Assembly: GCA_038998005.1 (NCBI GenBank)
Contig: JAVZIY010000002.1
Location: 1-31,995, forward strand
Length of the DNA: 31,995 nucleotides
Reading direction: 5' to 3'
Source: Candidatus Aenigmatarchaeota archaeon
GTDB taxonomy: Archaea; Aenigmatarchaeota; Aenigmatarchaeia; CG10238-14; SCSR01
The stretch's first letter is position 1; every line of letters begins with the position of its first letter. Below, one piece after another: positions 1-31,900 of the stretch. The translations under genes and the position numbers were made by a program. The notes under the pieces are model-generated. The model searched no databases. It was not told the DNA's origin and saw only the letters and a list, made by a program, of their open reading frames with translations.

Positions 1-2135
1 CCAGGATATGTTGCTTTTGGAACACTTATATTAAATCCCTTTAAGCAAAAGCTTCCTTTTTCAATTTCTCCACATTCTTCTAAGCTAGAGTTTGCTTGCC
101 ATCCATTTATAAGCTCTAAGCTTATGTTAACAGAATAAGCAGTTCCATTACCTATATTACTTGCATTAACATTAACTTCAAAGCTATTTCCTTTGTAAAA
201 AGTTACTCCCTCAACTAAAGGATTTTCTGGTTGAATTTTCAAGCTTACATTAGTTTTCCCTGGTTCTGTAGTAAAGGTATCTGTTCCATTTCCAAAATTC
301 CCATTTTTACTTGCATTACATATTAAAGTGTAAGTTCCTTCTTCAGAAGGAGCAGTAAAGTTTACAGAATAAGTTCCATTATTATAGTCAGTTTTATTCT
401 CTACCTCAAAAGAATCATAAGTGCAATTAATTTCTGCTCCTTGTATAAAGGAGTCTTGTCTGTAATTTTTCACGTATATATTGGCTTTTACAATACCACC
501 AATCATAGGCTTTTTATTTTGAATTTCAACAGTAACATTAAGTAAATCAGTTACGTTAAAATTATAAATTGTGAAATTGAGAAATTCATATTTTTCAGAA
601 TAAACTGTAAAGTTAATAGCCCAAATTCCTAGGTAAGCGTCGTTTGTTATGTCAAAAATATTTGAAAAAATTTTATCTCCAGCTTCTTCATCACCATGAG
701 TTCCGTCATCATATAAAATTAAAGTTACATCATCACTTCCAGAAGAAGTTCCCATATCCAAGCTAGCGTTTACATAAGCTGTTAAATTATAAGGATCATC
801 TGTTATGTTTAATTTTATCAAAACACTTTCATTCCTATTGTATATAGTTGCATTCGTTGTTGGCTCTAATGAAACATATAACCTTTCAGGTAAAGATATT
901 GATATTTGGGGAGGGGTTGAATATCTATTAACTATATCTGAAAACTCTGTTGTGCCGCTTGCACCTCCTATTCCAAAATAAACTAGAGATTTTTGATAAA
1001 TCCATGAATTTTGATTTATAAGAGTTTCGTTTAGTTGAACTCCTATTCTTCCTAGCTCAGTATCATTTTCAACAAAGAAATTGTTTGTATTAGTTTCATT
1101 TAAATTCAAAACTCCAACTAAATAGCCTGGAGGGTTCGATGCCCAAACCCATGAATATGGTTCACTCGAGCTCTTTTCTAAATCTGAAATTCCTTGGTAA
1201 AAACTTCTGTTTAAATCAAAAGCCAAGGCTCCTGCTTTTGTGGAATTTCTGTATATCTCATAATTTGCTACATTAGTGAAGTTTTGCTCTATTTTAACAA
1301 AACTTCCATATTCTTCTGGACCAGCTAAGTCATAAAAGTAATATTTCTTTGTCATTTTTCCTTCGTTTGTTTTTTGGTTAGGATTACCAAAAATTATCTC
1401 ATCCCCAACTTGTTTAATAGTTAACCTTATTGGTCCAGGTATAAAATCGATATTATTTAAATAAAATCCCAAGCTTGAGCCGTTTGAATATTCTATATAT
1501 TCTGTAGTTCTATCAATTTCACTTTGTACTAAAAATATTACATCACCTGTAATTCTTTTAACTTTGTAAAGCCCAGAAGTGTTTTCTCCCCTATTTGTAT
1601 CGATATTATAAAATGAGAAAGATGTGTTAACAATTATTTCCTTCCCATCCCAGCTATAACTTAAGTTAGTTGGATAGCTTGGCTTTTCTTTTTTTCCATT
1701 TTCTATTACATCATAATAAACATAAAAAATCCTTTTTTGGTTTGCTTGAGTAGTTCCATTTAGCAAGAAAATTAAAGTTCCGATTGCATTGCTTGAGGAA
1801 TTAAAATCATCACTTTTATCAAACTGGCTTGGAACTTCATAAAGCATATTTCCACTTTCATCATATTCTAATACTCTTGTTGAATTTTCATCAAAAGTTC
1901 CGGAAGGCAAGAAATCTGTAAAATTTATTTCTATTTCAATAGGCCAGTTATTTCTTTCATAAATGCTAGAGTTAATCTCTATTTTAAACCTATACCTCCA
2001 GGAAACATTCCACCATTCAAAATTGCCTTGAGGAGGACCAAAGCCTACAAAAAAGCCTGTTATTCTTAAGGTAAAATAATAAGCTATGACTATAAAAAGA
2101 AGTAAAAATAAACTATAAAAAACAAGCCTTCTCAT
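1..2135 (-). CDS. Partial large secreted/surface glycoprotein (>=711 aa, runs off the left edge; not in the ORF track)
   Basis: I translated most of it by hand from ATG 2135 and saw no stop; the frame at base 1 matches the start codon. It begins MRRLVFYSLFLLLFIVIAYYFTLRITGFFVG (signal/anchor helix), then WWNVSWRYRF (DUF2341-type start motif, 1986..2015), LYDDGTHGDEEAGDKIFS (663..716), Ig-like DYNNGTYSVNFTAPSEEGTYTLICNASK, and NIGNGTAYSVN...ECG...C...VPKATYPG at the edge. Many N-x-S/T sequons. Confidence 0.85.
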   Translation of the reverse strand, partial: MRRLVFYSLFLLLFIVIAYYFTLRITGFFVGFGPPQGNFEWWNVSWRYRFKIEINSSIYERNNWPIEIEINFTDFLPSGTFDENSTRVLEYDESGNMLYEVPSQFDKSDDFNSSSNAIGTLIFLLNGTTQANQKRIFYVYYDVIENGKKEKPSYPTNLSYSWDGKEIIVNTSFSFYNIDTNRGENTSGLYKVKRITGDVIFLVQSEIDRTTEYIEYSNGSSLGFYLNNIDFIPGPIRLTIKQVGDEIIFGNPNQKTNEGKMTKKYYFYDLAGPEEYGSFVKIEQNFTNVANYEIYRNSTKAGALAFDLNRSFYQGISDLEKSSSEPYSWVWASNPPGYLVGVLNLNETNTNNFFVENDTELGRIGVQLNETLINQNSWIYQKSLVYFGIGGASGTTEFSDIVNRYSTPPQISISLPERLYVSLEPTTNATIYNRNESVLIKLNITDDPYNLTAYVNASLDMGTSSGSDDVTLILYDDGTHGDEEAGDKIFSNIFDITNDAYLGIWAINFTVYSEKYEFLNFTIYNFNVTDLLNVTVEIQNKKPMIGGIVKANIYVKNYRQDSFIQGAEINCTYDSFEVENKTDYNNGTYSVNFTAPSEEGTYTLICNASKNGNFGNGTDTFTTEPGKTNVSLKIQPENPLVEGVTFYKGNSFEVNVNASNIGNGTAYSVNISLELINGWQANSSLEECGEIEKGSFCLKGFNISVPKATYP

Positions 2136-2167
2136 AATTTAATATTTTGTCTTTGGGCTTATTTTAC

Positions 2168-2782
2168 TTATTCGACTTTAATTTTTTCCTCAATAGCTTC
2201 AAGAACTTTCTTTATTTCACTATCTTTAAAGAGTAAGAGTATTTTAAAACTTATCTTTTCGCTTTTAACTTCAAAATTTGCATTAAGCATATGAACATAA
2301 ATTTTTTCTATGTAAATTGGGCCAAACTCAAATTCTTCTATTGCTCTATAAGCATTTGTATATAGAGAAGGAGAGTTCCAGCTTATTTCTGCTCCAAAGA
2401 GTTTTACAAGATAAGAGATGTAATAACCTTGTAATACATTAGTAAGCTCAAGTATAACTGGTAAATTTTCCTCATCCAAAGCCTTATAATATCCTATCTC
2501 TTTATGCAACAAAAGCTCAACAAGTTTTAATATATCTTTTAAGGAGCAGGCCAGTAGGATGACAGCATTTATTCTTCCGAAAATTTTTGTTGAAATTAAT
2601 GTAAATGATACTTCCTTTGGGTTAAGTAACCTAGGAACTTGGTTAACCCAAATCCTTCTAACAGAAACTGAAGAAATTTTTACATCTTTTCTAATCATTT
2701 TGCTTAAAGCCTCACAAGTTTCTTTTGTCTTCAAAATCCAAATGTCAGTAACTATCTTTTTTTCTATTTTAGAAAGTTTCAT
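2168..2782 (-). CDS. cheC: CheC/CheX-family response-regulator phosphatase
   Basis: 204 aa with CheC-like layout (ALSKMIRKDV; GRINAVILL; LVELLL). The second site is intact as ELTN-x22-P (E-x2-N-x22-P). It lies 4 nt downstream of the receiver gene. Confidence 0.8.
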   Translation of the reverse strand: MKLSKIEKKIVTDIWILKTKETCEALSKMIRKDVKISSVSVRRIWVNQVPRLLNPKEVSFTLISTKIFGRINAVILLACSLKDILKLVELLLHKEIGYYKALDEENLPVILELTNVLQGYYISYLVKLFGAEISWNSPSLYTNAYRAIEEFEFGPIYIEKIYVHMLNANFEVKSEKISFKILLLFKDSEIKKVLEAIEEKIKVE

Positions 2783-2786
2783 TTTT

Positions 2787-3155
2787 TCACTTTAAAGCTC
2801 TTTTAACCCTTTCAACCAAGTCCTTATTTTCAAAAGGTTTGGTTATATAATCAACAGCTTTAAGCTCTTTAAGTTCTTCTCTTCCTATTTCAGACAGTCT
2901 TACAACTGTGAGGAAAATTACTTTTATATCCTTTGTTTTTGGATTTTCCCTTATCTTTTTAACAGTTTCCTTTCCTGTAATTCCTGGCATCATTATATCC
3001 ATAAGAATCAAATCTGGTTTCACTTCTTTTAGTTTTTCTAAACATTCCTTGCCGCTATAAGCAGAAATTATCTCAAACCCTTCCTTTTCAAGAATAGCCC
3101 TAACAAGTTCTACCATATTTTCTTCATCATCTACTATCATCACTTTTTTTTTCAC
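2787..3155 (-). CDS. Stand-alone receiver-domain response regulator (CheY-like REC)
   Basis: 122 aa with all canonical REC residues: VDDE acidic pocket, LILMD phospho-acceptor followed by MMP, FLT, and YITKPF. GTG start; no output domain. Confidence 0.95.
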   Translation of the reverse strand: MKKKVMIVDDEENMVELVRAILEKEGFEIISAYSGKECLEKLKEVKPDLILMDIMMPGITGKETVKKIRENPKTKDIKVIFLTVVRLSEIGREELKELKAVDYITKPFENKDLVERVKRALK

Positions 3156-3198
3156 AATTTAATTTTCGCTTTTTAAATAAAAATATATATATTAATTA
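3156..3198. promoter_or_regulatory. Probable back-to-back archaeal promoters
   Basis: 43-bp, almost pure A/T spacer between divergent starts. TTTTAAAT (3171..3178) lies about 25 nt before ATG 3199, and TATATATA (3184..3191) about 30 nt before GTG 3155. Low complexity makes this weak evidence. Confidence 0.35.
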
Positions 3199-3447
3199 AT
3201 GGGATTATACGAAGATGTAAAAGCTATTTTAGTAGAGTTTCTCGGAGAGGATGGTGCCAAGATACTACAAAATTTTGATAATCCAAAGCTCTACCCAAAA
3301 GATTTTTTAGAAGAAGTTAGAAATTTTATTTCTGAGTTAGTAGGAGAAGAAAAAGCGGACGAAAAGCTTGAGCCGATATATAAGAAGTATAAATTACTTA
3401 TCGAAAGTGGAAAATTTCATTCTAAAAAACTAAAAAAGAGCATTTGA
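3199..3447 (+). CDS. Small all-helical hypothetical protein
   Basis: 82 aa, ATG start, fills the intergenic gap. Internal two-fold motif LVEFLGEDGAKIL / ISELVGEEKADEKL. Confidence 0.7.
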   Translation: MGLYEDVKAILVEFLGEDGAKILQNFDNPKLYPKDFLEEVRNFISELVGEEKADEKLEPIYKKYKLLIESGKFHSKKLKKSI

Positions 3448-3530
3448 TTAAATTTTCTTTCTCTTTACTAATAAAAAACCTACTTTCTTAGAATAATTGA
3501 TAAAGTAAATAAAAAATTGCCCCCCTCTAA
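3448..3530. terminator. Possible oligo-T terminators between convergent genes
   Basis: TTTTCTTTCTCTTT follows the + strand stop. On the - strand, TTTTTTATTTACTTT (AAAGTAAATAAAAAA on +) follows the 146-aa gene's stop. Archaeal termination uses oligo-T runs, but AT-richness makes chance matches likely. Confidence 0.25.
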
Positions 3531-3971
3531 TTAAATTTTTATTTCCAGAGTAATGATTCTAATTTCCATAAGATCTGATGCTATTTTGTATTCTCCAACT
3601 GAAATTAAAAGCAATCCTAAGAATAAAGAGAAGTAAAAATAAGAAGGATTTAAAAGAATAGATATATCGAGAGAGCTTAAGATAATTGAAAAGCCAAATA
3701 TCAAAAATAAAAGGTTTTTTGGAGTTTTGAAAAAGGATAATGAAGATAGAAAGATGCTTGGAAGTAAGCCTGATAAATAAACAAAGCTTTTTCCTTGAGA
3801 GCATGAAAGTTTTGAATATGCATATCCATTTAAAAAATCGAATGAAAGAACTTCACTTTTACATCCTATAAGCGAGGAAATTCCCAAGTGAGAAATTTCA
3901 TGAGTGAAAACTAGGGTAAAAAATAAAATAGTGTTCAATAAAATCATGCTTAGAATCTCTTTCTTCATCAT
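3531..3971 (-). CDS. Small polytopic membrane protein with HExxH; putative M50/M50B-like zinc metalloprotease
   Basis: HEISH (3888..3902) at the end of the first hydrophobic helix, followed by a beta-loop, VYLSGLL (resembles the M50 'AGP' segment) and a distal SSLD as candidate third ligand. About 4 hydrophobic segments in 146 aa. Confidence 0.6.
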   Translation of the reverse strand: MMKKEILSMILLNTILFFTLVFTHEISHLGISSLIGCKSEVLSFDFLNGYAYSKLSCSQGKSFVYLSGLLPSIFLSSLSFFKTPKNLLFLIFGFSIILSSLDISILLNPSYFYFSLFLGLLLISVGEYKIASDLMEIRIITLEIKI

Positions 3972-4036
3972 TTTTAAGATAACGCTAAAACTTAAATTTC
4001 TTCAAATTTTTAAGCAAAAAATTTAAAAATTTAATT

Positions 4037-4324
4037 ATGAGGAAGATAGAGCTTAATAAAATTCAGGAGTTAACAAAGAAGATATTCGAGGCTTCTTCTG
4101 AGATAAGTTTAGTTCAAGAAGAACTTGAAAATCTTTTATCTTTAATAGACAAAAATTCAATCGAATATCAAAAAGGAAAAATTTCAAAAGAGATGTTTGA
4201 ATCTAATGAGAAAAGATTAAAGAAGGAAAGTGCTTTGAGGATTAAAAAAATAAACAATCTTGTGAGCGGAGCTTTAAAATTTTTGAAGATGATTGAAAAG
4301 GAAATAAGATCTCAAAAAACTTAG
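4037..4324 (+). CDS. Helical-hairpin protein A (CdvA-like/SHOCT-like G-K-I-S turn)
   Basis: 95 aa of heptad-like helices with central EYQKGKISKEMF. Clear paralogue of the next gene, which supports both being real. Confidence 0.85.
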   Translation: MRKIELNKIQELTKKIFEASSEISLVQEELENLLSLIDKNSIEYQKGKISKEMFESNEKRLKKESALRIKKINNLVSGALKFLKMIEKEIRSQKT

Positions 4325-4333
4325 GTCTTAAAA

Positions 4334-4630
4334 ATGGGTGTAATAAAAAGAATAGATTTGAATTCGATTGAGGAGATTTTAAAGAAAATAATAGGAGCTT
4401 CATCTGAGCTCAAGCTTCTTCAAGATGAGATGGAAGATGTTTTTTCTCATTTAAGCGAGAACGAGAAACTCTTTTCAAATGGCAAGATATCAAAGGATGT
4501 TTACAATGAAAATAAAGCAAGACTTAAGAATGAAGCAAATGAGCTTAAGAAAAAATTAAAAGAAAAAATAGCAGAAGCCATAAAAATCTTGGAAAATGGA
4601 AGAAAGATTATAGAAGCAAACAGAATCTAG
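4334..4630 (+). CDS. Helical-hairpin protein B, tandem paralogue of A
   Basis: 98 aa with central LFSNGKISKDVY. Gapless alignment to A gives 35/94 identities by hand count. 9-nt gap to A. Confidence 0.85.
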   Translation: MGVIKRIDLNSIEEILKKIIGASSELKLLQDEMEDVFSHLSENEKLFSNGKISKDVYNENKARLKNEANELKKKLKEKIAEAIKILENGRKIIEANRI

Positions 4631-6468
4631 ACTTTTATTTTTTTTAGTTCACTTAAAATTTTTTTCTTCCTTTCTTCTCCAGTTACTGTTTTCCTCACTT
4701 TCTTCTTCCCCTTCTTTTCAATTTTTTCAACTTCTTTTTTCAACTTCTCTTTTAAATCTTCTTCTTTTTTCTCGACCTTTTTCTCTTTCTTAGATTCCTT
4801 TGGTTTTTCTTCCTTTTCCTCCCCTTCTTCCTCACTCAACTTCTTCCTTATCTCCTCTTTTTTCTCAATTTTCTCCTCACCAGTTTCTATCCTTTCGCTC
4901 TCCTCAATTTTCTCCTCACCTTCTTTTGTTACTTCTTCTCCAACTCCTTTAACCTTTTTAACTTCCTCCTTTCCCACTACTTCAGGTTTAACTATTTCTT
5001 CCAGTTTCTTCCACTCCTCCTTAAGCTTCCTTTCTATTTCTTCCAGTTTCTTCTCATTAGCTCTTTTAACATTTTCATACTCTTCCTTGCTTATTCTCTT
5101 TTCTCTAAATTGCTCTGACAAGGAATCAAGAAATAGTAAAATGTTTTCCCTTTCCCTTTTAAGCTCGATTATAGCTTCAGGGAGTTTTGTTTGGAGTAGA
5201 GGCAAGACTTTATCTATTTCTTCAAGTCTTTTATTTATTTGAATTATTTCTTCCTTCAAGTCATTCAAATCGCTTTTACTCACATAACCCTCAAGTTTTG
5301 TGTTTAAACCGTCTAATCCTTTACTAAGTTCTTTTATACTTTCATCCATCTCATCTTGCTTTGATTTATAAGTTACAAATTCATCCAAGCTCTTGCTCAA
5401 ATCTATGAAAATCTTTTCTGTTTTTGCTCCAACCCTTTCTATGTAGCGAGTAGCTTCATTAATTTCATCAACCCTTTTTTGAACATCTTTTATTAAGGTA
5501 AGAAGATTCTCTATGTTCCCCATAGCTTTAAGCATCTCATAAATTTTATTTACTCTTTCAGCCAAATCTTCAGATTTCTTTTCTAATTTTTCAAGCGTTA
5601 GTTGATGCTTTTCCAAGTTATCATTAAACTCTCTAAATTTTTTAGTTATTTGCTGGGGTTTAATCTCAGAAATTTCATCCTCGATTTTTTCCATCTTGAT
5701 AGAAGCTTCCTTTAGACTTGCATCAGTTTGGAATACCATAGACCTTAGCTCACCAACGCTTTCAGAAATAGTTCTTATACTTTCGTCAGTTGCCTGTTTA
5801 GCTTCTCTTACAGTATCTATCATAACTTTTAGCTTTTCAATTTCAACCATGGCGTCAGTTTTCACTTCTTCCTTTTCTTTTACTTCTTCAGCTTGCTCTG
5901 GTTTGGGAGAATAAACATTTTCCATACCTTCTTGACTTTCATAAGGGGATTCTTCTTCCTTCTTCTCCTCTTTTTTACCAAATATTCTTTGTAAGAAGCC
6001 AACTTTTGGTTTTTCTTCTTTTTTACTTTCCTTAGATTTTTCAACTTTTTCCTCAACTTTTTTTTCTTCCTCTTTTGGTTTTTCCTCAACATTCTCTTCT
6101 TTTTCCTCCTCTTGCTCCTTAGCTAATTCTTCTTGAATCATTTCCCCTACGCTTTTCTCTTCAGAACTTTCAACTTCTTCCTTCTTTTCAACTTTTTCTT
6201 CACTAATTTCTTCAACTTCCTCCTTTCCTTTTTCCTCAACTTTTTTTTCTATAACCTTTTCCTTAATCCCGAGCTTTTTATTTAACTCATTTAATCTTTT
6301 CAAATATTTTTCCTTAAGTTCCTTGTAGCTTTTTTCAGAAATGTTTGCTTTCCTGTATTCATCCTCTAAATACCCTATCATTTCTTTTAAATCTTTTCTC
6401 TCGTTCTCTAAATCTTCCTTCAAATTCTTTTTTACTTTTTTTGCTTTCTTTTTTGCTATCTCAACCAC
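4627..6468 (-). CDS. Long coiled-coil / Glu-Lys-rich cytoplasmic protein
   Basis: 613 aa. The GTG start overlaps the giant gene's stop by 8 nt. It contains E/K low-complexity arms, a central coiled coil (ISESVGELRSMV...), two EYRKANISEKSY / QFREKRISKEEY motifs and an amphipathic GFLQRIFG. No TM helix or signal peptide. Confidence 0.85.
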   Translation of the reverse strand: MVEIAKKKAKKVKKNLKEDLENERKDLKEMIGYLEDEYRKANISEKSYKELKEKYLKRLNELNKKLGIKEKVIEKKVEEKGKEEVEEISEEKVEKKEEVESSEEKSVGEMIQEELAKEQEEEKEENVEEKPKEEEKKVEEKVEKSKESKKEEKPKVGFLQRIFGKKEEKKEEESPYESQEGMENVYSPKPEQAEEVKEKEEVKTDAMVEIEKLKVMIDTVREAKQATDESIRTISESVGELRSMVFQTDASLKEASIKMEKIEDEISEIKPQQITKKFREFNDNLEKHQLTLEKLEKKSEDLAERVNKIYEMLKAMGNIENLLTLIKDVQKRVDEINEATRYIERVGAKTEKIFIDLSKSLDEFVTYKSKQDEMDESIKELSKGLDGLNTKLEGYVSKSDLNDLKEEIIQINKRLEEIDKVLPLLQTKLPEAIIELKRERENILLFLDSLSEQFREKRISKEEYENVKRANEKKLEEIERKLKEEWKKLEEIVKPEVVGKEEVKKVKGVGEEVTKEGEEKIEESERIETGEEKIEKKEEIRKKLSEEEGEEKEEKPKESKKEKKVEKKEEDLKEKLKKEVEKIEKKGKKKVRKTVTGEERKKKILSELKKIKV

Positions 6469-9400
6469 CTAATCTTTCTATCCTTTTTCCTATAGATTCC
6501 AAGTAAGTTTCTGCCATCCTGAAAGCCCCTGTCTTGAGCTTATCCTTTGCTATGTTAAGCTCAATTTCTATGTCATAAGTGTCAATTTTCTTTTTCTTCA
6601 ATTCTTCAACCTTCTTCTCAAACTCCTCTATTTTCTTATTTAGTTTTACGTATTGATTAATTTCATCATCTGTTAAAGCAAAGGGCGAATGCAGCAATGG
6701 CCTGAAAGCTATGAACCATGGCTTTCCATAGTTGTACTCAGGATTTTGGAATAAACCAGTACCAATTGTTAGTTTAGTAACCTTAGAGGCATAGTCACTT
6801 CCATACTTTGACTTAACTCTTCCAATATCTCCCTCATACTTTGTTCTTAGCTGAATTTCGTTTGCTATGTTTGCTCTAATAGCTCCTTTGAAATCTAGCA
6901 ATACTTGTGATATTAGGAATAAGCCAATTCCCCACTTCCTAAATTCTCTGCATGCCCTTTCTATTGCAACATACCCTCCCTTACCTCCATATTTAGGCAA
7001 TAATCTGTGAACCTCATCATATACCAAAAGCAATTTAATTTCCTTTGACTCAGGAGGTCTCATATCAAATACAGATTGTATGCTTCTCCTGACAAAACCA
7101 TCAAGATCCTCTGGTTTTAATCTATTCATTACAAATACTGTAATTTCACCAGGATTCATGTATTTCTTTATATCAATCTCCATGTTAGGATCATCAACCA
7201 AAACTATATTTGTTTTGAAACCTCTTGCATCTGTTGGCTTCAACCCAAATTGTGGGTATAAGTCTAGCATAGCTTTTAATCGGCATGGCTTCATAAAGCC
7301 TGTCCATTGAGCAGTTGGGTCAAAAACTATAATCGGGACTTTTCTCTTAAGCAATTCTTCAGCACTAACCATTGCTGAAACTGTTTTTCCTGAGCCAGTG
7401 CCACCTGCTGCTATTGAATGCATTATTAGCTGGGATAAATCTATGTAAGCCTTAATATTAGTTTCTGCTATTTTACCAACTTCAATTGCATTCGGTCCTG
7501 GTTGAGGTAATTTCTTGAATTCAACAGGCGATATATACCTTGCTTTTGCTGCTTTAGCAGCTCTGTAAGCTGCAAGCCATTTCATTCCTATGAGCAGGGA
7601 AGGAACTCCAACAAATAGTATTATATAAGTTGCCCAATGCATGAAGATTGTTCTAAGTATGAACAAGGGCAATGGTAAAACTGTTACATCAAAGTTATCT
7701 GAAGATAGGGCATACTTACCACCATACCAATAACTTGCATTAACTTCTATCAAATATCTTCCTTCAGAAGTACCTTCAGGTATTTTTATCTCCCTTCTTA
7801 CAGTATTTACTGTCGATACTGCTAAGGTTTCTTGGGATGTTGCTATTACAATTCTTGGATCCAAAAGAGATCTTACAGTATAAGTTACAGTTATATCTTC
7901 AATTTTTTCTGTTTCACCCATGTTAACAAGCTTTAATTCAAAAGTTAGATTTTGTCCAGGATTAACAGCTTTTGACAAAACAGTAACTTTTACGTCCAGT
8001 AAAGGCTCTAAAACAGGCTTCACTACAATTGTCACAGGAATTCTATCCTCTATATTTTCTGTTTTAACAACTATGTCACCTGTATAAATACCAGGAGCAA
8101 TTGTAAGTGGGGCATAAGCTCTTATTGCAGTGACACCCAATCCTTTTGGAGGAACATTGAAAACAGGCTTTTGAATCGTTAAGAGCTGAAATGCAGGCCC
8201 TTCAACAGTTATCCTTACATCAATTAACTTATCCAAATTGTTTGTGACATCTATGGAAAATATTTTTTCTTCTCCTGGTACCAAGGTAGTTTCAAGAAGT
8301 GTAGACTTAATTTGAACAGGAGCTAAAGTGACGTTTGCTCCTGGGCCAGCTCCTGGCGGAATTGCTGGAATTGCTGGAATTGCAGGTATGGTAATGGCTC
8401 CGGCACCACCTCCAGTCACAGGAACTACTGGTGTTGGAGCAGGTGGCAAATATGGGCAATCACTAGGACAATTTTCGGTTGTTTCTCCATACTCGCTTTC
8501 GCACTCACCATTTCCACAAATAAATTCTGCTAAAACATAAGCTCCGCTTAAATCTGTTAAGTTTGCCTTTACATAGAATGCTGAAATGTTTACAGAGTTA
8601 TCGCTATTATCGCGATTTGGATTTGTTATCCTTACCCAAAGTGAGTTTTGTGCAGTAGTGATTTTTGGTGTCCAATTCCCACCATATCTATAAATTCCAA
8701 GTCTGCTTGGGTCATGAATTGGTACATTGCATCCTCCTTCAACACAATCTGAAAAGTTGAAGTAAAGTATGTAGTATGATGGCTTAAGTATAGTATAAAC
8801 ATAAATTGATTTTAGTACAGAGGTTGAGGTTCTTACAGAAGGAATATTTCCAACAACTACTGGATTGAAATAGTTTTGTATCAAGCTTAAATTATACATT
8901 TCTATTCTGTGAGAAAAGCCATATTCCTTAAGTTGAAGTGCTAAATCATATGATTTGGCATCTATTGTTTCATTGTAAATTCCTGTTGTTAAGTTTGGAA
9001 TAATTTCAAATCTTTTTACTTTTGTTCCAGCATCAAACAAGTTAAAGCTTAAGTCTATAACTGGCTCTCCTAAAAGTTCGATATTCTTAGCATATCCGCT
9101 AAATAAAACAGTAGGATAGATTTCAAATGAAGAAGTTTCTAAATTGCAATTTTCAGATAGGTCGCACGCTTTAATTTCTATTGTATAATTTCCAATTAGC
9201 GAAGTATTTGAGAAGTTGAATTCGTAAAGATAATTATCTACTATCTTTGAAATTAAGCTAAAGTTTATAGTTTCACTTCCACCATTTGGATATGTTAAAT
9301 TTCCAGTTATATTCTTTATTCCACCAGACTCAGTAACGTTTGCTTTTATGCTTATGGTTGAATTTGCAGGAACTCTTACTGGTAATATTAAAGTTATTAT

Positions 9401-30400: not shown

Positions 30401-31738
30401 TCCATAGTAATAAGAATCACCAACAAAAACAGCTTTCCATTTGTGTTCGCCAACTGAGTAAGTACAGTCTGGGTCGAATGCTATGGTTAAATAACCTAAG
30501 CTTGAAGAGTTAGACCATTTTCCCCAAGTTCCATCTTTTGTAACGTTTATGTAAAGAGTGTCAGAACCTTTATCTAAGTAGCTATTAGTGAAAGTATCAA
30601 AAAGTCTTGCTTCTAAAATAGTTGTATTGCTTCCTACTCTGCTAGCCCAAGAATCATTTCCTTGTGAGTAGACCCAATAAGTGTTTCTTTTAGTAACGTT
30701 GAAAGTTTTGGTAGAAGTTCCTGCATAGCCAGAATGCAAATCACTTGCGTTTATAAACCATTCATAGTCTCCTATATCAGTTCCAGAAGTATACTTTTTG
30801 CTCAATTCAACTTGTTTATTTATACAATCTGAGCAAAGTGTTGAGTTAGCTAAAGAAAATTCTCCTGTAGGTAATTTTCTTATCCATAGGCTTACGTTAA
30901 CTGTATCATCATCATCTGTTACGTTTACTTTGAAAACAAAAGTCGAACCCCAAGGTGCTTGCTGTGGAGAAACGAATTCATTTGTTAAAACAGGATTGAC
31001 TTGATGGAAGAAGACTTGGTTTCTAATTTTTGTTCCATTATTATAGTAAGATCTTGAAGAATTCATCTCAACATTATACCAACCTGAAGGATTGGAAGAA
31101 ATGTTCCATGTGCAATTGTAAAAGCCGTTTCCTTCACTTAAAACTTGCTCACAAACTGTTGAAAAGGCATTATAGCCAGAGTGGAAAATTCTGAAAGTTA
31201 CCGAAGCATCGCTTATTATTAAACCGCATTCATCGGTTACGTTTCCTCTTACAGTTACATTTTCGTTAGAGAGATAAGCTTCTCCATTTGGTTCACTAAC
31301 ACTGTTGTTTAGCCAGCCTTTTATATTTGTGGTTAAGGTTAAAGTTGAGTTAACGTCTTTGTAGCAAGAATCTTGGTAAGTTCCAGCCTTCCAGTATTGC
31401 ATGCTAGCTGAATAATCACAGTTCGGAGAGAATGAAGATGCTAAATAACCTTGAGAGTCTGTTATATTCTGCCAACCTGAATCATAATTTACTTGGTCTT
31501 TTGTCACCCAAACTTTTCCTTGAACATTATAAGGAACATAACTTTTATTATCTGTATCATAAATTCTTACTTTTAGCAAAACTGAGCCAGAATTTCTGTT
31601 AACCCAAGAGTTATTACCTTCGGACAAACCAGAATATTCAATGATAACGTCATCCTTAGTAAAAGTGAAGTTTTTCCCTGGTCTATCAGTAGAGTTGTGA
31701 GCATCACTTGCGTTGAACTTGAAATAATACTCAGGCAT
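6461..31738 (-). CDS. Giant surface protein: repetitive beta-sandwich stalk + single TM + C-terminal FtsK/HerA (DUF87-type) ATPase; 5' end truncated
   Basis: Uninterrupted 8425-aa frame, open a further 54 codons to 31900. It has about 18 repeat modules, TM WATYIILFVGVPSLLIGM, Walker A GGTGSGKT, Walker B LLVYDEVH and the REFRKWGIGLFLISQ motif. Confidence 0.93.
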   Translation of the reverse strand: MPEYYFKFNASDAHNSTDRPGKNFTFTKDDVIIEYSGLSEGNNSWVNRNSGSVLLKVRIYDTDNKSYVPYNVQGKVWVTKDQVNYDSGWQNITDSQGYLASSFSPNCDYSASMQYWKAGTYQDSCYKDVNSTLTLTTNIKGWLNNSVSEPNGEAYLSNENVTVRGNVTDECGLIISDASVTFRIFHSGYNAFSTVCEQVLSEGNGFYNCTWNISSNPSGWYNVEMNSSRSYYNNGTKIRNQVFFHQVNPVLTNEFVSPQQAPWGSTFVFKVNVTDDDDTVNVSLWIRKLPTGEFSLANSTLCSDCINKQVELSKKYTSGTDIGDYEWFINASDLHSGYAGTSTKTFNVTKRNTYWVYSQGNDSWASRVGSNTTILEARLFDTFTNSYLDKGSDTLYINVTKDGTWGKWSNSSSLGYLTIAFDPDCTYSVGEHKWKAVFVGDSYYYGSESQNFTVNIYSEFYAQVLQPNGEVYSEGENIQIIGRLRDECLNNIPGATTIFRVYPGDYSCDPEPANDLGNGNYSCTFGTSGLLGWYDISMNSSKNYFNDTYTLKQNAFQIRRKPSITSYQISPEQEGWGYNFTVNAYLLDADSGDTLNISLWKSYNGINWVYVSSQIKVDCTSGCDIIFNPEFTCSDYLSSSTIYLKLNVSDSYGLKNETSSFTVTLEKDDVSFNTIQAPSSVDREGGTGVFVVRVNDTDKNAWLDDSQESVKGYFWFTKEPSSPTWDSGWFATVNSSGYMQVSFDPNCSYAASYQYWKVGILDNNCYADTNSTELGFTIKGQLKSNLYLPKRFSEFNVSDLINIRWSVYSDCYGISEAYDSGNITGVSNVLNLYNFGNSSSCIDINEIFEGNYNCTWNSTSQPEGNWTINVQVSKTNYNSNSTNFTNWFWLENLAPEIVEIEVSPEQAGWGSVFNYSVYVNDKENDEVTCLLYVNTTGSFVFKGINTTSTPGLCNVIVNDFTCQDQSNASFYFIVNDTFNKVNTSEIFGVTQGPNITKNSISITLIQGNGAKVNRSDNNPIGNKTKLILKVNDTTRNSVPLENTNGSIWMTYDFSNYYQYFVKTNSSGYFNFDFDPDCSGPYYQTGKQYWIAAVIDDVCYETKYTNSTPTENYTVDVIGDLILEIISPKGEKYLRSNYPDGQNVNLTARITSDCSVEGGLSDAQTSFILTQGSTVKNCSPIESLGNGYYNCTLNTSDFSAKGWNATFNASKDYFNPSSLTDIFQIWQKGFWVETKPVLTTDFSYVSYNSTGHIGDGGWGETWIFWVNVTDEDEDTLNVNLYINRSDDGEWAQPVSGEGNTTNTTAKGINTTVTFVLKLPSPVALGGSSPIGPHAFKFNVSEKEDIFGNSSIDFPQNINETGNGTFVYQKDDIILEHIAGNTTVVNRTGNQIQTLTVRVYDADRGIYPIFKSDGASIWVTTDLASNYVPLTGTTSVQNSYINTSATQFDPTCSFSVGPQKWKAGITSDNLHYKETNSSEFFINITTVSLSFKYISPKNGKLFIKFPIPADSILLVGNVSDDCGGVNQSTANFYLYRGETIKVCSLIGTIIDYNNGTYGCLISNSTLYSDPELDYGYWNVSFNASKSYYNSSEEEFEQNALYIASRPKLTTGSAYVSTGNHTSGWGDLWFFEVGVEDEDYLGEQGSLVNVSFWVNLTGQWEYVGSQVCSPPCTGIGINALKFEKSFSCENIGTRFFKFNATDNFYSSDKRFRAESSTQSFALSPDLASLTIEQGDGSSVNRVGIETSILKASITDWSKEGITVTEQGISGRIYITKNRTTFDSFIPLTTGSDGLFTYDFDPNCSYYTGRQWWKVELTDSCYSSTSSQNATVYVYGQLYSNLEYPPSGWVNGTGTLIPIILDVKSDCSGYIDEESPGVPNSTEGISYPIKVRRPDDSTIENCYPWQDWENGTYNCTFDTIYHPPGYYDIILSSAKQYFIPNTTYYYDWFELTNLPPSYQNPQVTPSIGGWGSKYNFSIEVKDTDLDLVNCSLFVSTDDGLTWRYVNSTIISGSSQWQNCSFTLVEPYACNSTYFDVGNDNWFRFNLTDEVGQTSVVTTPGPEITKDNITITYVYGNNTNITRASGFLPLKVYVFDTVRNKAVGSYGSAQARISFNVTKDGTNYVLVGSNQTYASLPGNVTFNFDPSCEFDVGYQQWFAFYNSSVGAGGECYYYNESERFSIGIVGQLVNYVVSPNSTKNRFVREEENITFRGNVTTDCSAKDGLITNANVTFEATHAGTGGKYYCDEPLINEGNGYYSCLFINNASKPTRNYKLNMSSSNVSWFNPGWTEVTGLCTPTPCAFFVVTKPSLSSPSVSYTQDGGWGESWQFSITLSDPDLDVNTVRLWVRNTTPAPSACPEASAWPDFYLKGSQSVSQGNIIFNYPSPAFSSACAGVSFEFFFNTSDGERTANTSLLTFTVQKDDVNITLVEGNSAILNRSLAPYQENVTFSIRIYDTDRNVLLGVGTPGTIKFYVTTDPNNPNSFVVEESIPQIGAGGFVNHTFPKAETRCNYGIGPLRWRAEFGSTSTIYKATNSTSTYGDDFYITLITYPLQVSVIAPNNQSFRRNVDLITYVGNVSDDCGGVKGASVEFRAYPEEINPSSTCLPSEVTDYNNGTYSCSRMPSEDWQMTYHNLTINASKQYYEPSEIFEKQDSFVIVTNPTLTLLIPTSKCRASECLGSDNNFGWGELWNFSAIVQDLDQGAYSFEKLNVSLWIDFGSGYQLVNSTLCYAPTCQSQKLITFLQTFDCGKIGSWNYKINISDYWGYKNESSGGIIINPNSIEVEYVSSPTKIDREIGTTQGTFILRIKDLDKDEYLPSGVNASFFFTKDGSTFNVKNDVKTNSSGHINITLDPDCSYSVGIQKWDGGISGDYCYYSENYTQRIGGPYAPPEYNISGQIKVNLLQPYYQQIFNVTQQILIRFNTTSDCSEEGLIANATYPLAQIELRSPYGEWETCSPLNNEYNGWYNCTWDSTNKKEGYWSINLTASKLPNYNLNETMFENFFWLENVYSVAENTSVSPSQGGWSRLFNYSIDIYDQEGDTINCSLFISKDNQQTWEYKGSYIVQGNPGIPTQGKCFVQVHDFDCEDIGEDNWFKWQIQNGEPANTYNTSAVQGPNITESTVSITYIEGNDSYLNRSSGINQIKRFGVNVYDIENSSYAPNVNVSFWVTNDSTNYRLNVKNQTDYLGNASYYFDPDCSYAVGKQYWIAGVTDSCYLDANTTSNFTIYVIGDLSNSILQPVGGTEYKRGENITIRGYVSSDCSWEVLNESVSVNFVSIHSETGQQFICSPVLNENDGHYNCTFNTSSPAIMPARFYNIKFNSSKQYYNPYETTGNNNFWIETAPTLTNPSVNNTQGGWGEWYTFSINVTDEDRDDVRVWLWRRRVGTEAWSQFGTPLTKSSGIVSQVLNFTRTFTCDDLNYGANQVWEFMFNATDDPTTYADDKANSTTISLTLEKNDIAVIYVEGNNSVVNRSVAPSQSNATLRVQVIDTDRNISVSSEPGTARFYVTTNPYDVNSYAVDKTITTGTETGGYLTDIFPTSPRCNYKIGPLRWKTEFGSTCYKTTNSSVFFLNTTTYPLQVEIQRPNNETFRRAIDTILLRGNVSDDCGLVSGAEVSLKTVKGVFSYGCPDDVGINDEGNGWYNCSFVSSSTWSLGYYNATMEASKEFYEGSEIKTKINASVLVTNPQIQGLSVTTSDTVNPGGWGELWAFSAQVRDIDQGISELGFEKLNISLWIDFGSGYQLVNSTLCYAPACSEWAEISFTQHDFNCQHIGTRAYKWNVSDVWNYKVEASDSVTVSQDDVEFPTNEITEPNIIEREGSKEGIFVFRIKDKDNNSYVPANVNASIWFTTNASDQTSWDYTRHLTTNSSGYVTYGFDPNCSYSVGIQYWKGGSLDSCYEVKNMTPRTFEIKGQLKNQLNQPSFGSVYNVTELISINFTTLSDCSAYRGDENPVINASSYTIELKSPLETWESCLPINNSYQGWYNCTWNSTGKKEGFWSIRLNSTKEYFNQNSTVYENWFQLVNWNATNTSIPIVNPSEAGWSRIFNYSIAVYDQEGDTINCSLFISKDNQQTWEYKGSYIIQGTPGIPTQGTCWVALHNFTCEDIDKPEGQEWIVSKAKWFKWQIENGEPENAWFTDAIQGPNITESQVLISYIVGDNSYVNRSSGINQVVRLAVNVFDLENLSYASNVNVSFWVTNDSTNYRVDIINQTDSFGNASYYFNPDCSYSIGKQYWIAGVTDSCYLDINASSNFTSYIIGDLIPTITSPKGEKYLRSDYEDGQLVSFNASIKDECGLAITNAQLNFSGIKDSEVKWCEEVINLGDGNYSCKLNTTNFRAQGWNSSVNVSANFYNSNSSLETFVIWQKGFWVETKPVLTTEWWYESRDYLGNLGDGGWGETWYFRVNATDEDYDILEVKLWVNSSQAGGDWAQPLSSMTNSSVQGKNVTVTFVIPAWSTYSNPGLGSHIFKFNVSEVKDIYNNATKDFVNNTYEIGNGNFTITKDDLLLIHVEGNNTSVHRPENNYQTLSVKVFDKDKGSDVTSGILSTNVRIWVTNNLAFNFTPIPSTFSSGYINTSSGQFDPDCNFKVGPQKWKAGVLYAEAYKAANSSEFSINITTDPLNIELLQPLNAKFYLKGIEDVPVKVKVTDECGGVSEANVTIISQQLGAYPQNKDCVEDQSPKGQIFYEGNGIYNCTFRADTTAQEEPTWLYGYTNVSVQAFKTYYNDSEVNFTINSYYLTSKPEITLKSLYTDYGTSGWGENWHFPVDIEDKDYNAQLGSVINVYLWLNLTGSWELFGYKTCVPAVGNCTNLEFYPVNFTCNRTYSDVGIKGYKINASDNFNYTDEEQSSFTITQDQADIADVKYSKSSIAREFSDSAWFASLFVDTIRGLEITYENVSGKIYITTDSSNYLFNLSLLSQPNGYFNYTFDPNCSFSVGMQKWKINLEDSCYYTASSGEQGFTIIGQLKNSLIEPAYGSNIEIEVGKTVNVTSSIKGECGENVESASVTHEARWPDLTFENITPVEELGSGFYNSTWNITFKKGGYYSFRVNSSKEYYYSNSSLFVDWIYLNNTPPLVENFSVIPSSAGWGNNFTFSADIDDIQLDNVTCKLFTFTPSSSSWVYRGNATVYGGKGNCSITVSNFNCQDVNYTLNWFKFEIDDGTNLFNTSNISAPNIERDPVEIEYVYGNESIANRSMYQKDLLVLRIKDSIRNSYVGSGIQGRIFVTKDGTNYDSGTQNTTNSTGYLNVYFDAKSDYEVGPQYWKGGTYQDSCYLDANSSEFILIVYGDLINYLLIPETYTEYLKPEENISIRVSVTDDYPVAVSDASVNITLIHGLQNFECSPVYPMGNGEYNCTRNTSTLVAGIYNISIASNKTYYNNGYTLKENAFFIKTKPILYGENVSSQQDGTLGGWGETWTFKVNVTDEDLDNVTVYLYVKWENDADWTLANVSDYESNPELQGPLNVSVILNYKNPGLFQNKKGNWSYKFVAQDSRGYQTETLPKNFTIEKDDVQIQVWTGNGEIVWRNGTQILYLRVNVTDIDRNLPAENANVTFWVTLNGNDFDSGTSTSSDFEGVAEYPFDPNCDYSTGIQKWKAGMVYDQYYKEFTTQNFTLIIKTLMQLNITYPDGQSFLIGEKVPFIGYVYDECFGIPGATVTFKDIRGYSDWSCTPVSDLGNGTYNCTFDTSGKPYEWHDVEMTALKQYYENYPTPSVRTKTNAYFLASQPSLSDLSVDHSFGGWGELYTFSVKITDLDKNYNNITLWKSSDNQTWNLVDWKWVKASYSNMPVSFSVRFGCEDYLNGEDGKLYYKINTSDEYGYKATTEVKNITLERDDVYLSIGADSNSSVRRIGNNEAYFRLIIKDTDYGIYPSNVNGTVWITEDGSSYTVILNCTSTLGNCSVFYNPNCNSNVGIQYWKAGTTDICYKEVNTSSQTFTVYGQLNVSLIYPLNGAIINRGKITSLNASVSGECSEIIGDASVNWYNSSFNLLASGYNTSWNVPKTYKLGPETIYVNASRQYYDPNSNSSSIYIYGWSELDSISPANGTIASAGTPITITCHVRDSNTSQSIADYIINFLKNGTSLANVSTNENGYASYVWYTTGEAAGWYNLTCAIESNSTLYYNTSTSQIETLVKLARPLIIDQIVRQYSWIYRNDSFAPHQTNISVHVKDAGIGDAENANVSFYNSTHFLNSCLTNSSGWCSFVNFNADDSITPGPYTIYMNATKPGNEDSLTNTTIITIKGILNTTIILPLNESYYSKSQSIPLKANGSSENGESFAELLPIVKWYNETAQIAQGMDTYLPQPQVAEQRTGWHSFMAVASKSYYDDGIANVSVLITSLSDVVWISPVGIIPYPQGFYPTCLVKDHESGAGISDYTVNFSYKWEPSTQFIYNGSYQTNSSGYASYSFIPEQKGNITFNCTIGDNGTQYYSANIKEAIETIWVKDLEPPKIYNASIIPNSSIEANLNSTNITATIVDNYEIDSVWANITMPNGTIIILSMNNITIPEKSFGFFEATYSVSYLPPIGGTYNISIYARDFAPEYNINSTFVESIEVWGKTFGLIEQVPQEIVAYNITQTKGFSFDVRITFTNIGPATAYSVNLTHTEEPLGSLTYNETMKECGTLYANQNCTWDLRVTVPPATLPQLITSYIIAGWREPDNTLGQTFNSTSITVSSNPVVEISPKEIVKETPHDKSTYVGNVTTFAAGNDDLRDTKLITVGGNLFLDCPLCYLSVVPSEIGLLGAGQSIVSHISLTVPAGQAPGIYWTKLRANTSNAGYDEMLLNLTIPVNNSWIRNPETFGTVLLPLNTSGKIGNITVKNIGNVKITFEILKSGNGSAFITAYPSGAPQTTAFDLEKLMERNVSLDYTVSSNAVEGIYTVEIVVRNVTPANPKERRTNITLNVTDIPPIIEDVFVEPRVFEVGYENVTIQAKITDNFAVDKAWINVTLPNETIEVHFMDKFGDIYNLSYFSLNEGIHLIKICANDTRSLEACTQAIEVEGSKTTWLEIIPNATQIIADDITIDYGQNFTVNITLNNTGGSRAFDSNLTINASNITAFPEFFEFGTILKKQVKSNLTEIRIPNATPAGIYYISLNASWRNLNDTYNSSNKTIIVNVTKNPKLIVLEENITKIIPGGTAGNTSFTIKSIGNENVTNVSINCSSGKVCEDFDVLFEPENFTLIPVGETRKVNVSIYVPPNYQTGSYNGSIEIKYDGKASYLQVYVNVPINISWEHLEKEIHRSVLQADSGYFGSLTIVNTGNSEIPLSLVVTGNIKPYLNLSEKEIILPYAGSKTIHIYYSSPDIPYDTNYTGKIISNITGELRENASIKMQESFVSMFVSVYKVKIISPTKANPLTRVLPNDLIEAKVNISANSSYVTQNVSFNISIFNSSLSSLSVINSSYFNSSENLWRVKFYAPELSIARVYSLNVTASYNGTKYLVRSDIEEDSIVYMDNIPPIITLILPVRVPANSTISIKANVTESGGIKNITGNLTYPNGGSETINFSLISKIVDNYLYEFNFSNTSLIGNYTIEIKACDLSENCNLETSSFEIYPTVLFSGYAKNIELLGEPVIDLSFNLFDAGTKVKRFEIIPNLTTGIYNETIDAKSYDLALQLKEYGFSHRIEMYNLSLIQNYFNPVVVGNIPSVRTSTSVLKSIYVYTILKPSYYILYFNFSDCVEGGCNVPIHDPSRLGIYRYGGNWTPKITTAQNSLWVRITNPNRDNSDNSVNISAFYVKANLTDLSGAYVLAEFICGNGECESEYGETTENCPSDCPYLPPAPTPVVPVTGGGAGAITIPAIPAIPAIPPGAGPGANVTLAPVQIKSTLLETTLVPGEEKIFSIDVTNNLDKLIDVRITVEGPAFQLLTIQKPVFNVPPKGLGVTAIRAYAPLTIAPGIYTGDIVVKTENIEDRIPVTIVVKPVLEPLLDVKVTVLSKAVNPGQNLTFELKLVNMGETEKIEDITVTYTVRSLLDPRIVIATSQETLAVSTVNTVRREIKIPEGTSEGRYLIEVNASYWYGGKYALSSDNFDVTVLPLPLFILRTIFMHWATYIILFVGVPSLLIGMKWLAAYRAAKAAKARYISPVEFKKLPQPGPNAIEVGKIAETNIKAYIDLSQLIMHSIAAGGTGSGKTVSAMVSAEELLKRKVPIIVFDPTAQWTGFMKPCRLKAMLDLYPQFGLKPTDARGFKTNIVLVDDPNMEIDIKKYMNPGEITVFVMNRLKPEDLDGFVRRSIQSVFDMRPPESKEIKLLLVYDEVHRLLPKYGGKGGYVAIERACREFRKWGIGLFLISQVLLDFKGAIRANIANEIQLRTKYEGDIGRVKSKYGSDYASKVTKLTIGTGLFQNPEYNYGKPWFIAFRPLLHSPFALTDDEINQYVKLNKKIEEFEKKVEELKKKKIDTYDIEIELNIAKDKLKTGAFRMAETYLESIGKRIERLGG
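6680..7486 (-). other. Cytoplasmic FtsK/HerA-superfamily ATPase domain of the giant protein
   Basis: Walker A GGTGSGKT (7382..7405), IIVFDPT strand, Walker B DE (7013..7018), RKxG arginine-finger motif and the SQ motif typical of HerA/VirB4/TraG ATPases. Confidence 0.9.
7583..7636 (-). other. Single transmembrane helix of the giant protein
   Basis: WATYIILFVGVPSLLIGM followed by basic KWLAAYRAAKAAKAR (positive-inside rule). Confidence 0.85.
8358..8384 (+). repeat. 9-bp tandem repeat x3 encoding (IPA)3 in a Pro/Gly linker
   Basis: GGAATTGCT GGAATTGCT GGAATTGCA read directly. Confidence 0.9.
8456..8518 (-). other. Cys-rich CGNG-C-E-GE-CP-DC motif
   Basis: CGNGECESEYGETTENCPSDC directly before the Pro-rich linker; a small disulfide knot typical of surface proteins. 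Confidence 0.75.
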
Positions 31739-31900
31739 GTCGTTACAGTTAAATCCCTTGTAGTAGAAAGTTAGCTCAGTCTTTATTCCACAATCATAGC
31801 AAATTTGAGAATCAACATACCACCAAGTAGAATTGTCTGGAGATAGCCATAAGCTTACATTAACATCGTCTGCATTTTCATCGCTAACGTAATATCTTTT
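13690..31900 (-). repeat. Array of ~18 degenerate ~340-aa (~1 kb) coding modules
   Basis: G/P-W-G/S anchor motifs at about 30950, 30012, 29013, 27970, 26875, 25843, 24784, 23695, 22682, 21682, 20641, 19627, 18568, 17482, 16491, 15520 and 14539 (17 copies, spacing about 940-1095 nt), plus a truncated first module. Each module also has KDD, FDPxCxYxxGxQxW and GxYxC motifs. Confidence 0.92.
19476..22650 (+). repeat. Near-identical direct repeat pair inside the giant gene (19476..19596 and 22530..22650)
   Basis: 121 bp with 7 mismatches by hand alignment; offset 3054 nt. Confidence 0.9.

Follow-up and report, generated by a model that had tools for sequence, protein, structure and literature searches.

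The 31,995-bp contig analyzed here in its entirety (hereafter, the window) belongs to a metagenome-assembled genome (MAG; 626 kb, 81% complete) of a hot-spring DPANN archaeon, Candidatus Aenigmatarchaeota, and carries one end of a conserved Aenigmatarchaeota cell-surface gene cluster organized around a giant glycoprotein of the SPEARE type. Four of its genes, which encode the giant, a coiled-coil protein, a second large surface protein and a small HExxH membrane protein, form a recurrent core, and we place the probability that this core is one functional unit slightly above even, at about 0.55. The fixed set of partner genes beside the giant suggests, as far as sequences can tell, a single host-contact apparatus. 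The nearest genomes are likewise labeled Candidatus Aenigmatarchaeota, DNA of the locus was seen again in hot-spring metagenomes from several studies, and G+C content is even along the window (0.29-0.37). Since the window is the whole contig, both large genes are cut.

This reading draws on co-occurrence. Each part was searched for in 118 species genomes of the order, and neighborhoods were read in 20 fetched downstream regions and then in 80 further DPANN loci (Aenigmatarchaeota, Woesearchaeota, Nanohaloarchaeota and others). The ATPase tail of the giant (8,425 residues; open reading frame [ORF] at 6461-31738, minus strand) is strongly matched in 57 genomes, in frames of up to 14,236 codons, and the coiled-coil gene (613 residues; 4627-6468, minus strand) in 56; both are present in 54, and in the three genomes with the ATPase only, the tail lies at a contig edge. 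The coiled-coil gene comes directly after the ATPase-tailed gene, on the same strand, in all 20 regions and in 74 of the 80 further loci. The junction is 60 nt or shorter in 70 of 95 cases, and the two genes overlap or abut in 28; these counts are approximate because some loci were fetched twice. Paralogous ATPase-tailed proteins of ~2,200 residues, encoded in the same genomes, are adjoined by a more divergent coiled-coil gene of their own (in G089, for example, the pairs lie at 20.8-22.9 kb and 606-609 kb, with identities of 50% versus 27%), which implies that the giant/coiled-coil pair is older than the duplication. Intermediate paralogues in three genomes (G075, G038 and G008) belong to shorter triads, in which a short second surface protein is encoded right after the coiled-coil gene.

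The other two core genes follow the giant less strictly. The second surface protein, single-copy and about 1,950 residues long (~1,900-2,050), is found in 44 of the 118 genomes: 35 of the 38 genomes with a giant-class protein versus 9 of the 80 others. In 28 of those 35 it is encoded on the contig of the giant, a few kilobases downstream. The HExxH protein occurs in 31 genomes, 24 of them giant-class, and its gene lies immediately 5' of the second surface-protein gene, co-oriented or divergent, in at least 12. The original prediction, a model's reading of the DNA letters alone, had proposed that the whole locus may be one undescribed surface machine and had made co-occurrence in related genomes the point on which this idea should turn. 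Across the 118 genomes and 80 DPANN loci, the four core parts do co-occur and mostly co-localize; the proposal holds for this conserved core, whereas the hairpin and REC/CheC genes that it had included are accessory and the giant belongs to a type already published.

Two of the core proteins, the coiled-coil protein and the second surface protein, also share a short motif. The 80 cytoplasmic residues that follow the transmembrane (TM) span of the second surface protein (...EKEKEEGIISIAAYKEMKKNIEDKL...) are conserved in 12 full-length relatives, and their profile aligns with the motif after the coiled-coil core (motif 2) at 97% (E 6e-11) and with the motif at the coiled-coil N terminus (motif 1) at 95% (E 6e-8) in profile-profile comparisons by hhalign. 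Motifs 1 and 2 match each other at 95% (E 3e-8), and two small hairpin proteins, described below, match motif 2 at 68% (E 5e-5). Control comparisons with other helices of the coiled-coil core gave 6% or less; one further control has to be discarded, since it set the coiled-coil N terminus against the initial third of the core (95%) and short homologues span both regions. A hairpin motif common to three genes, as had been proposed, is thus real by hhalign and extends to a fourth protein through the tail of the second surface protein. The consensus, G-x-I-S-x2-E-Y-x3-K-x3-L, resembles SHOCT (PF09851). In hmmscan searches the copies in the window gave no SHOCT match, and two relatives gave E 0.0027 and 0.04 (14-18 bits, with a cut-off of 27). 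The tail of the giant was also considered as a bearer of the motif and rejected (hhalign 1.4% or less against all motif profiles).

The second surface-protein gene (3-2135, minus strand) runs past the contig edge; its initial 711 codons, those in the window, encode a signal anchor, an I-T-G-F-F-V-G-F-G motif and a 400-residue beta-supersandwich head. The remainder, including the TM span and the SHOCT-like cytoplasmic tail, lies on a second contig of the same MAG (C51:3-3407; 72% identity match); on C51:1-5102, the C-terminal 1,134 residues of the protein are accompanied by a homologue of a secreted protein of 788 residues. The locus extends past the window, and a third contig (C18:7872-11520) adds four conserved envelope genes in the order seen in the sister genome. 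The model of the head (residues 30-430) is a beta-supersandwich with a predicted local distance difference test score (pLDDT) of 94, and Foldseek matches it to beta-domains associated with carbohydrates in PL26 lyase and GH38 mannosidases and to the P1 domain of YidC (E 3e-8, TM-score ~0.5). The proposed sharing of stalk domains between the two large surface proteins is backed by BLASTP: the 711-residue fragment aligns with giant residues 6507-6635 (32% identity, E 1e-9), and the full-length second protein of the sister genome with giant residues 6539-6966 (28.6% over 433 residues, E 1.6e-34). The modules common to both are membrane-proximal and NPCBM_assoc/CARDB-like.

The N-terminal motif of the second surface protein recurs in a pattern of its own. 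It follows the first hydrophobic helix as [I/L/F/Y]-T-G-x-F-[V/I]-G (window 2010-2050, residues 24-33), and is found in 10 of 12 second surface proteins and 7 of 9 giants among relatives (L049-L056). In the 774 ORFs of the source genome it occurs only in the second surface protein and in a 340-residue ORF (C9:7074-8096). It may serve specifically to mark proteins for sorting or processing. That I-T-G-x-F-V-G marks substrates of the M50-like enzyme described below is speculative, and one genome (G009) counts against this idea: the second surface protein encoded next to its HExxH gene is without the motif.

The coiled-coil partner begins with SHOCT-like motif 1 (6292-6360), followed by an E/K-rich linker and an amphipathic segment, GFLQRIFG (5977-6000, residues 157-164); a conserved all-helical core (4969-5886), SHOCT-like motif 2 (5035-5103) and an E/K-rich tail complete the protein. 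The amphipathic segment, in full K-V-G-F-L-Q-R-I-F-G-K-K, stands immediately before the conserved core and is, we believe, close to the C-terminal membrane-targeting helix of Escherichia coli MinD, although it is internal in the partner and C-terminal in MinD. A G-F-F-x-R-L-F-G version is present in 16 of 83 coiled-coil homologues. The helix noticed in the original prediction is therefore present and recurrent, and its resemblance to MinD makes it a putative membrane-targeting element. An AlphaFold2 model of the partner is all-helical with long helices (pLDDT 78, predicted TM-score 0.27). At a threshold of E 1e-10 the family numbers 856 cluster representatives, and almost all its homologues are labeled hypothetical; among the matches listed, 78 of 81 coiled-coil homologues carry no Pfam domain, and Pfam and NCBIfam scans returned nothing for the coiled-coil protein, the hairpins or the HExxH protein of the window. 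Hamm et al. (2023; bioRxiv 10.1101/2023.02.24.529834) tied DPANN coiled-coil proteins to type IV pilus loci; those proteins may or may not be related to the partner family. A gene for a winged helix plus a MinD/ParA-type ATPase (Pfam CbiA 1.7e-20; e.g., L046:15381-16340 in G032) was seen in 35 fetched loci, in many of them right after the coiled-coil gene or the second surface-protein gene. Its best match in the source genome is C18:6757-7560 (44%), and it may position the complex.

The giant is almost entirely ectodomain. Residues 1 to ~8020 (7676-31738) are beta-sandwich/Ig-like repeats with Pfam matches to Big_7, NPCBM_assoc, Filamin and DUF11; the ectodomain also has 413 N-x-S/T sequons and a Pro-rich linker (8321-8455). 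A hydropathy scan places a single hydrophobic membrane span at 7574-7675 (residues ~8022-8055, minus strand), after which come a cytoplasmic P-loop ATPase of the HerA/FtsK superfamily (~300 residues; 6689-7573, minus strand), assigned from Pfam, NCBIfam and PDB matches, and a C-terminal coiled-coil tail that is unrelated to the shared motif (6464-6688, minus strand). The ATPase has a Walker A motif, GGTGSGKT (7382-7405), a Walker B motif (DE, in DEVH, within 7013-7030) and the arginine-finger region REFRKWG, all at least 95% conserved in 83 homologues. It matches Pfam DUF87 (1.4e-10), HerA_C (1e-5) and T4SS-DNA_transf (5e-4) and HerA in the PDB (4d2i, 4e-6), whereas NCBIfam matches to CedD, HerA, TraD and TraB are partial, cover the Walker regions only and fall far below cut-offs.

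As assembled, the giant has no signal peptide. Its frame stays open for 54 codons above the ATG, up to a TGA at 31903-31901, with a TAA at 31927-31925 near the contig end; the break could reflect a collapsed repeat, a frameshift or a true truncation. The protein aligns solely to residues 5911-14236 of a 14,236-residue orthologue from the same genus. By this measure the assembly lacks ~5,900 N-terminal residues, and a search elsewhere in the source genome did not find them. Within this pair the ATPase tail is 93% identical and the ectodomain 50%, indicating a fast-evolving ectodomain and a tightly constrained motor; across the order, tail identity is 61-95%. The orthologue itself (G032:C1:56732-99442; loci L145 and L047) starts with a cytoplasmic IclR/MarR-like winged helix (Pfam 7e-7), a TM span at residues 94-112 and a stretch resembling an intein-splicing domain (PF14890, 2.4e-5, below cut-off). 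In two other genomes (G016 and G019), the winged-helix-plus-TM protein is a gene of its own immediately upstream of the giant. In one genus (L051, G103:C1:45000-59000), a FlaI/CpaF-like ATPase, two TadC-like membrane proteins and about five type IV pilin-like genes lie directly upstream. ATPase-tail homologues with 47-49% identity are also found on contigs binned as Heimdallarchaeota, Methanosarcinales and Hydrothermarchaeales (L119, L120, L131 and L139); these may be mis-binned DPANN DNA or transfers to hosts.

The fourth core gene (3531-3971, minus strand) encodes a polytopic protein of 146 residues with an HEISH sequence (3888-3902, residues 24-28) inside its first TM helix. The HExxH signature, Asp102 and Glu127 (in GE) are conserved in 14 homologues. 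Its predicted model matches M50-family clusters in the Atlas (TM-scores 0.60/0.68), with a feature score of 0.89 to M50B, which makes the protein a candidate miniature intramembrane zinc protease of the M50/M50B/DUF3267-like kind.

Five further genes fill the space between and beside the core. Along the window, they and the core genes are separated by gaps of 32, 4, 43, 83, 65 and 9 nt and by overlaps of 4 nt (4627-4630, hairpin/coiled-coil genes) and 8 nt (6461-6468, coiled-coil start/giant stop), exactly the tight packing, with gaps of at most 83 nt and two overlaps, that had been described; ORF calling finds nine genes in all. The hairpin paralogues (95 and 98 residues; 4037-4324 and 4334-4630, plus strand) have a central G-K-I-S-x3-F/Y turn (4175-4198 and 4481-4504). 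Neither matched WXG100 profiles, even at E up to 10, or contains a W-x-G turn. The pair is present in 7 of the 118 genomes, always in tandem and always between the coiled-coil and HExxH genes, and is accessory rather than the obligate component it had been taken for.

The same holds for the signaling genes, a CheC/CheX-like gene (2168-2782, minus strand), a stand-alone receiver (REC; 2787-3155, minus strand) and an ORF of 82 codons (3199-3447, plus strand). REC is a CheY-like receiver (Pfam Response_reg 1.9e-29, 102.5 bits, with a cut-off of 30.2) with its acidic pocket, Asp53, Thr83 and Lys106 intact, and is the sole receiver domain in the genome. The CheC-like protein matches NCBIfam CheC (1.2e-13, 51 bits, with a cut-off of 250) and Pfam CheX (7e-4, 20 bits, with a cut-off of 27); one E-x2-N-x22-P site is intact (2369-2449, residues 112-138) and the first is degenerate. 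The CheC-like gene occurs in 11 of the 118 genomes, and all seven copies that could be placed lie within a few kilobases of the 3' end of the giant gene; the catalytic motif is lost in copies of family f3. Wherever REC and CheC both occur in the fetched loci, the 82-residue protein accompanies them. The sister genome, of the same genus, and members of two other families have the module in full, with a PAS-HisKA-HATPase kinase and a 6-TM protein in addition to the 82-residue protein, REC and CheC. Where the window has the 83 nt between the HExxH gene and the 82-codon ORF (3448-3530), the sister genome encodes a histidine kinase of 753 residues with four PAS domains and a 6-TM protein of 251 residues. 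The absence of both genes from the window is not an assembly error, because independent contigs from two studies bridge the stretch with 0-2 differences. No histidine kinase was found in the 81%-complete genome, where the only HATPase_c match is topoisomerase VI-B, and the kinase of the sister genome has no homologue there. In this genome, the signaling module has lost its kinase. REC and CheC, presented earlier as integral parts of the machine, are thus accessory (11 of 118 genomes), and REC is without a kinase here; we infer that the hairpin pair and the kinase/6-TM/82-residue/REC/CheC module are lineage-specific regulatory additions.

We posit that the coiled-coil protein would lie beneath the membrane as an adaptor, with the MinD-like amphipathic helix as an aid in this lineage, and would connect the second surface protein, at its tail, with the ATPase ring of the giant by motif-motif pairing. 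The result would be a two-fiber host-attachment complex, in which the lectin-like head of the second protein may bind glycans and the fast-evolving ectodomain of the giant may set host specificity. The ATPase could power (i) assembly, (ii) remodeling or (iii) transfer at the contact site, and the M50-like enzyme could process one membrane-anchored protein. In published proteomics, the size fractions that contained the ectodomain of a SPEARE protein differed from those with its TM/cytoplasmic part (PMC6642349), which is consistent with cleavage by a protease. At this locus, secretion, action of the motor and release by proteolysis are conjectural, and any particular motor action is much less likely than the functional unity of the core. 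A fuller version can be drawn, in which an undescribed trans-membrane apparatus of archaea sets a hexameric HerA-type ring on giant fibers, joins it through a SHOCT-motif scaffold to the lectin-headed second protein, matures by M50-like processing (possibly at I-T-G-x-F-V-G), is governed in some lineages by a CheY-like switch, and serves Aenigmatarchaeota and, via paralogous versions, DPANN generally as an ATP-driven host-contact machine; taken whole, we regard it as unlikely.

Several observations weigh against a single functional unit. The tail of the giant lacks the shared motif, which leaves the contact between coiled-coil protein and ATPase unexplained; the SHOCT assignment is sub-threshold, the M50 assignment comes from a predicted structure only, and the fold of the coiled-coil core finds only generic helical matches in the PDB (best E 0.57). 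REC/CheC is absent from 107 of the 118 genomes and kinase-less here. Physical linkage is not obligatory, because in genus g36 the second surface protein is encoded on a different long contig and in genus g43 the HExxH gene is >200 kb away on the chromosome. A search of sequencing runs found no RNA run that holds the locus; two runs labeled 'metatranscriptomic WGS' are probably DNA, and contigs cannot reveal transcripts. The main competing explanation is that the locus is a surface-protein island, a variable, co-regulated region where envelope and host-interaction genes collect and where physical interaction is confined to the giant and its coiled-coil partner. Besides the second surface protein and HExxH gene that are unlinked in some genera, it would account for the small genes that change strand and order between genomes (in G089, REC/CheC is inverted compared with the window), for the gain and loss of accessory genes across genomes, and for the extension of the cluster beyond the window by more secreted proteins and the MinD/ParA gene. 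We nonetheless consider it rather improbable: co-regulation alone hardly explains a SHOCT-like motif common to the coiled-coil protein and the second-protein tail, a second protein that tracks the giant class so closely, or the recurrence of paralogous triads.

Two further explanations give the giant a more specific task. If the locus encoded contact-dependent translocation akin to type IV secretion systems (T4SS) or Ced, a HerA/VirB4-like ring would pump DNA or protein at the fiber base, as proposed for nanohaloarchaeal giants, and the other genes would supply the channel and its control. The ATPase does belong to the pumping FtsK/HerA/VirB4 superfamily, with the partial CedD, TraD and TraB matches and the T4SS-DNA_transf match given above; its motor is under strong purifying selection, and secretion was argued for by Reva et al. 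(PMC10266531). Each subunit, however, has one membrane span, the family matches are confined to the Walker regions, and Pfam and NCBIfam scans of the ORFs of the window and of the sister locus found no VirB6, VirB3 or VirD4, no second VirB4 and no relaxase. Nothing in the window shows the secretion that the original prediction had envisaged, and no other T4SS or type VII parts were found; this explanation is quite unlikely. Still less can be said for the full scheme of that prediction, a phospho-regulated system of attachment and release in the manner of LapA/LapG/LapD, with REC/CheC in control of the motor and the HExxH protease setting the fiber free. REC/CheC genes that can be placed are always in the locus (the seven copies plus L080), other genomes have the complete kinase/6-TM/REC/CheC set there, and the catalytic residues of REC are intact, yet the scheme fails because the module is rare and the kinase missing, an arrangement that the independent contigs confirm; CheC has lost its catalytic motif in family f3, and nothing ties the protease to the giant over the second surface protein. 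We judge it highly improbable, and the four-gene core as one functional unit remains the reading that we favor.

Attachment to other cells is the way of life of DPANN archaea, and the means by which they adhere and exchange material are a central open question for which giant SPEARE-type proteins are leading candidates, hitherto treated as single proteins. The giant comes with a seemingly obligate coiled-coil partner; in Aenigmatarchaeota, it is also joined by a second surface protein that has a motif in common with this partner and by a small putative membrane protease. The locus gives a concrete parts list and pairwise interactions to test, turning a 'giant adhesin' into a testable multi-protein system, and defines two unannotated families, the partner (~850 clusters) and the conserved second protein of ~1,950 residues. 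The literature that we searched holds no description of the fixed partner set, the shared SHOCT-like motif, the second-protein family of ~1,950 residues, the mini M50-like neighbor or a locus-bound two-component module.

Several known systems resemble parts of the locus. Walker A, Walker B and the arginine-finger region align with HerA (Sulfolobus, PDB 4D2I; anti-phage HerA helicases), but the ATPase of the giant is membrane-tethered and matches the P-loop core only (DUF87 positions 1-103 of 220); no N-terminal HAS barrel was detected, the region from the TM span to Walker A being ~55 residues, and Pfam and NCBIfam scans of the ORFs found no NurA, Mre11 or Rad50 in the window. A membrane-anchored FtsK-superfamily ATPase adjoining tandem hairpins of ~100 residues recalls type VII secretion (EccC/EssC, WXG100); here, however, there is one ATPase domain instead of three, the hairpins have G-K-I-S-x3-F/Y in place of W-x-G, and the pair occurs in 7 of 118 genomes. 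In Pseudomonas, LapA, LapG and LapD provide regulated retention of a giant adhesin. The scheme is similar in its logic, which combines a giant adhesin built of repeats with its own protease and with signaling, but no components are homologous, the putative protease is membrane-embedded and M50-like, and the signaling module is rare and kinase-less here.

The closest relatives are the SPEARE proteins that Hamm et al. (2019) described in Nanohaloarchaeota, noting homologues in Aenigmarchaeota (PMC6642349). Reva et al. (2023), who argued for a role in secretion, described them anew as giant proteins anchored in the membrane, with an ATPase of the VirB4/TraG kind and a coiled coil at the end (PMC10266531). 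The stalk-motor that had been called undescribed matches these published proteins: a huge glycosylated Ig-like ectodomain, one span near the C terminus, a cytoplasmic VirB4/HerA-like ATPase, then a coiled coil. Homologues of the ATPase tail with 48-61% identity are found in ORFs of up to 5,276 residues in Nanohaloarchaea MAGs, a comparison made with MAG ORFs rather than with the named NAR1_1133 protein, and of up to 12,145 residues in other DPANN MAGs. Hamm et al. give SPEARE proteins at least one laminin-G domain in the ectodomain (PMC6642349); in the giant, of which 8,425 residues are present and ~5,900 N-terminal residues missing, Pfam detects neither laminin-G nor any protease or toxin-like domain. 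The neighborhoods differ as well: the published SPEARE locus has a second VirB4/TraG ATPase and a proteasome activator (PMC10266531), whereas the locus described here has a coiled-coil partner, a SHOCT-tailed second surface protein, a mini M50-like protein and optional two-component genes. The giant is thus a very large new member of a published type, and the locus around it is the new part.

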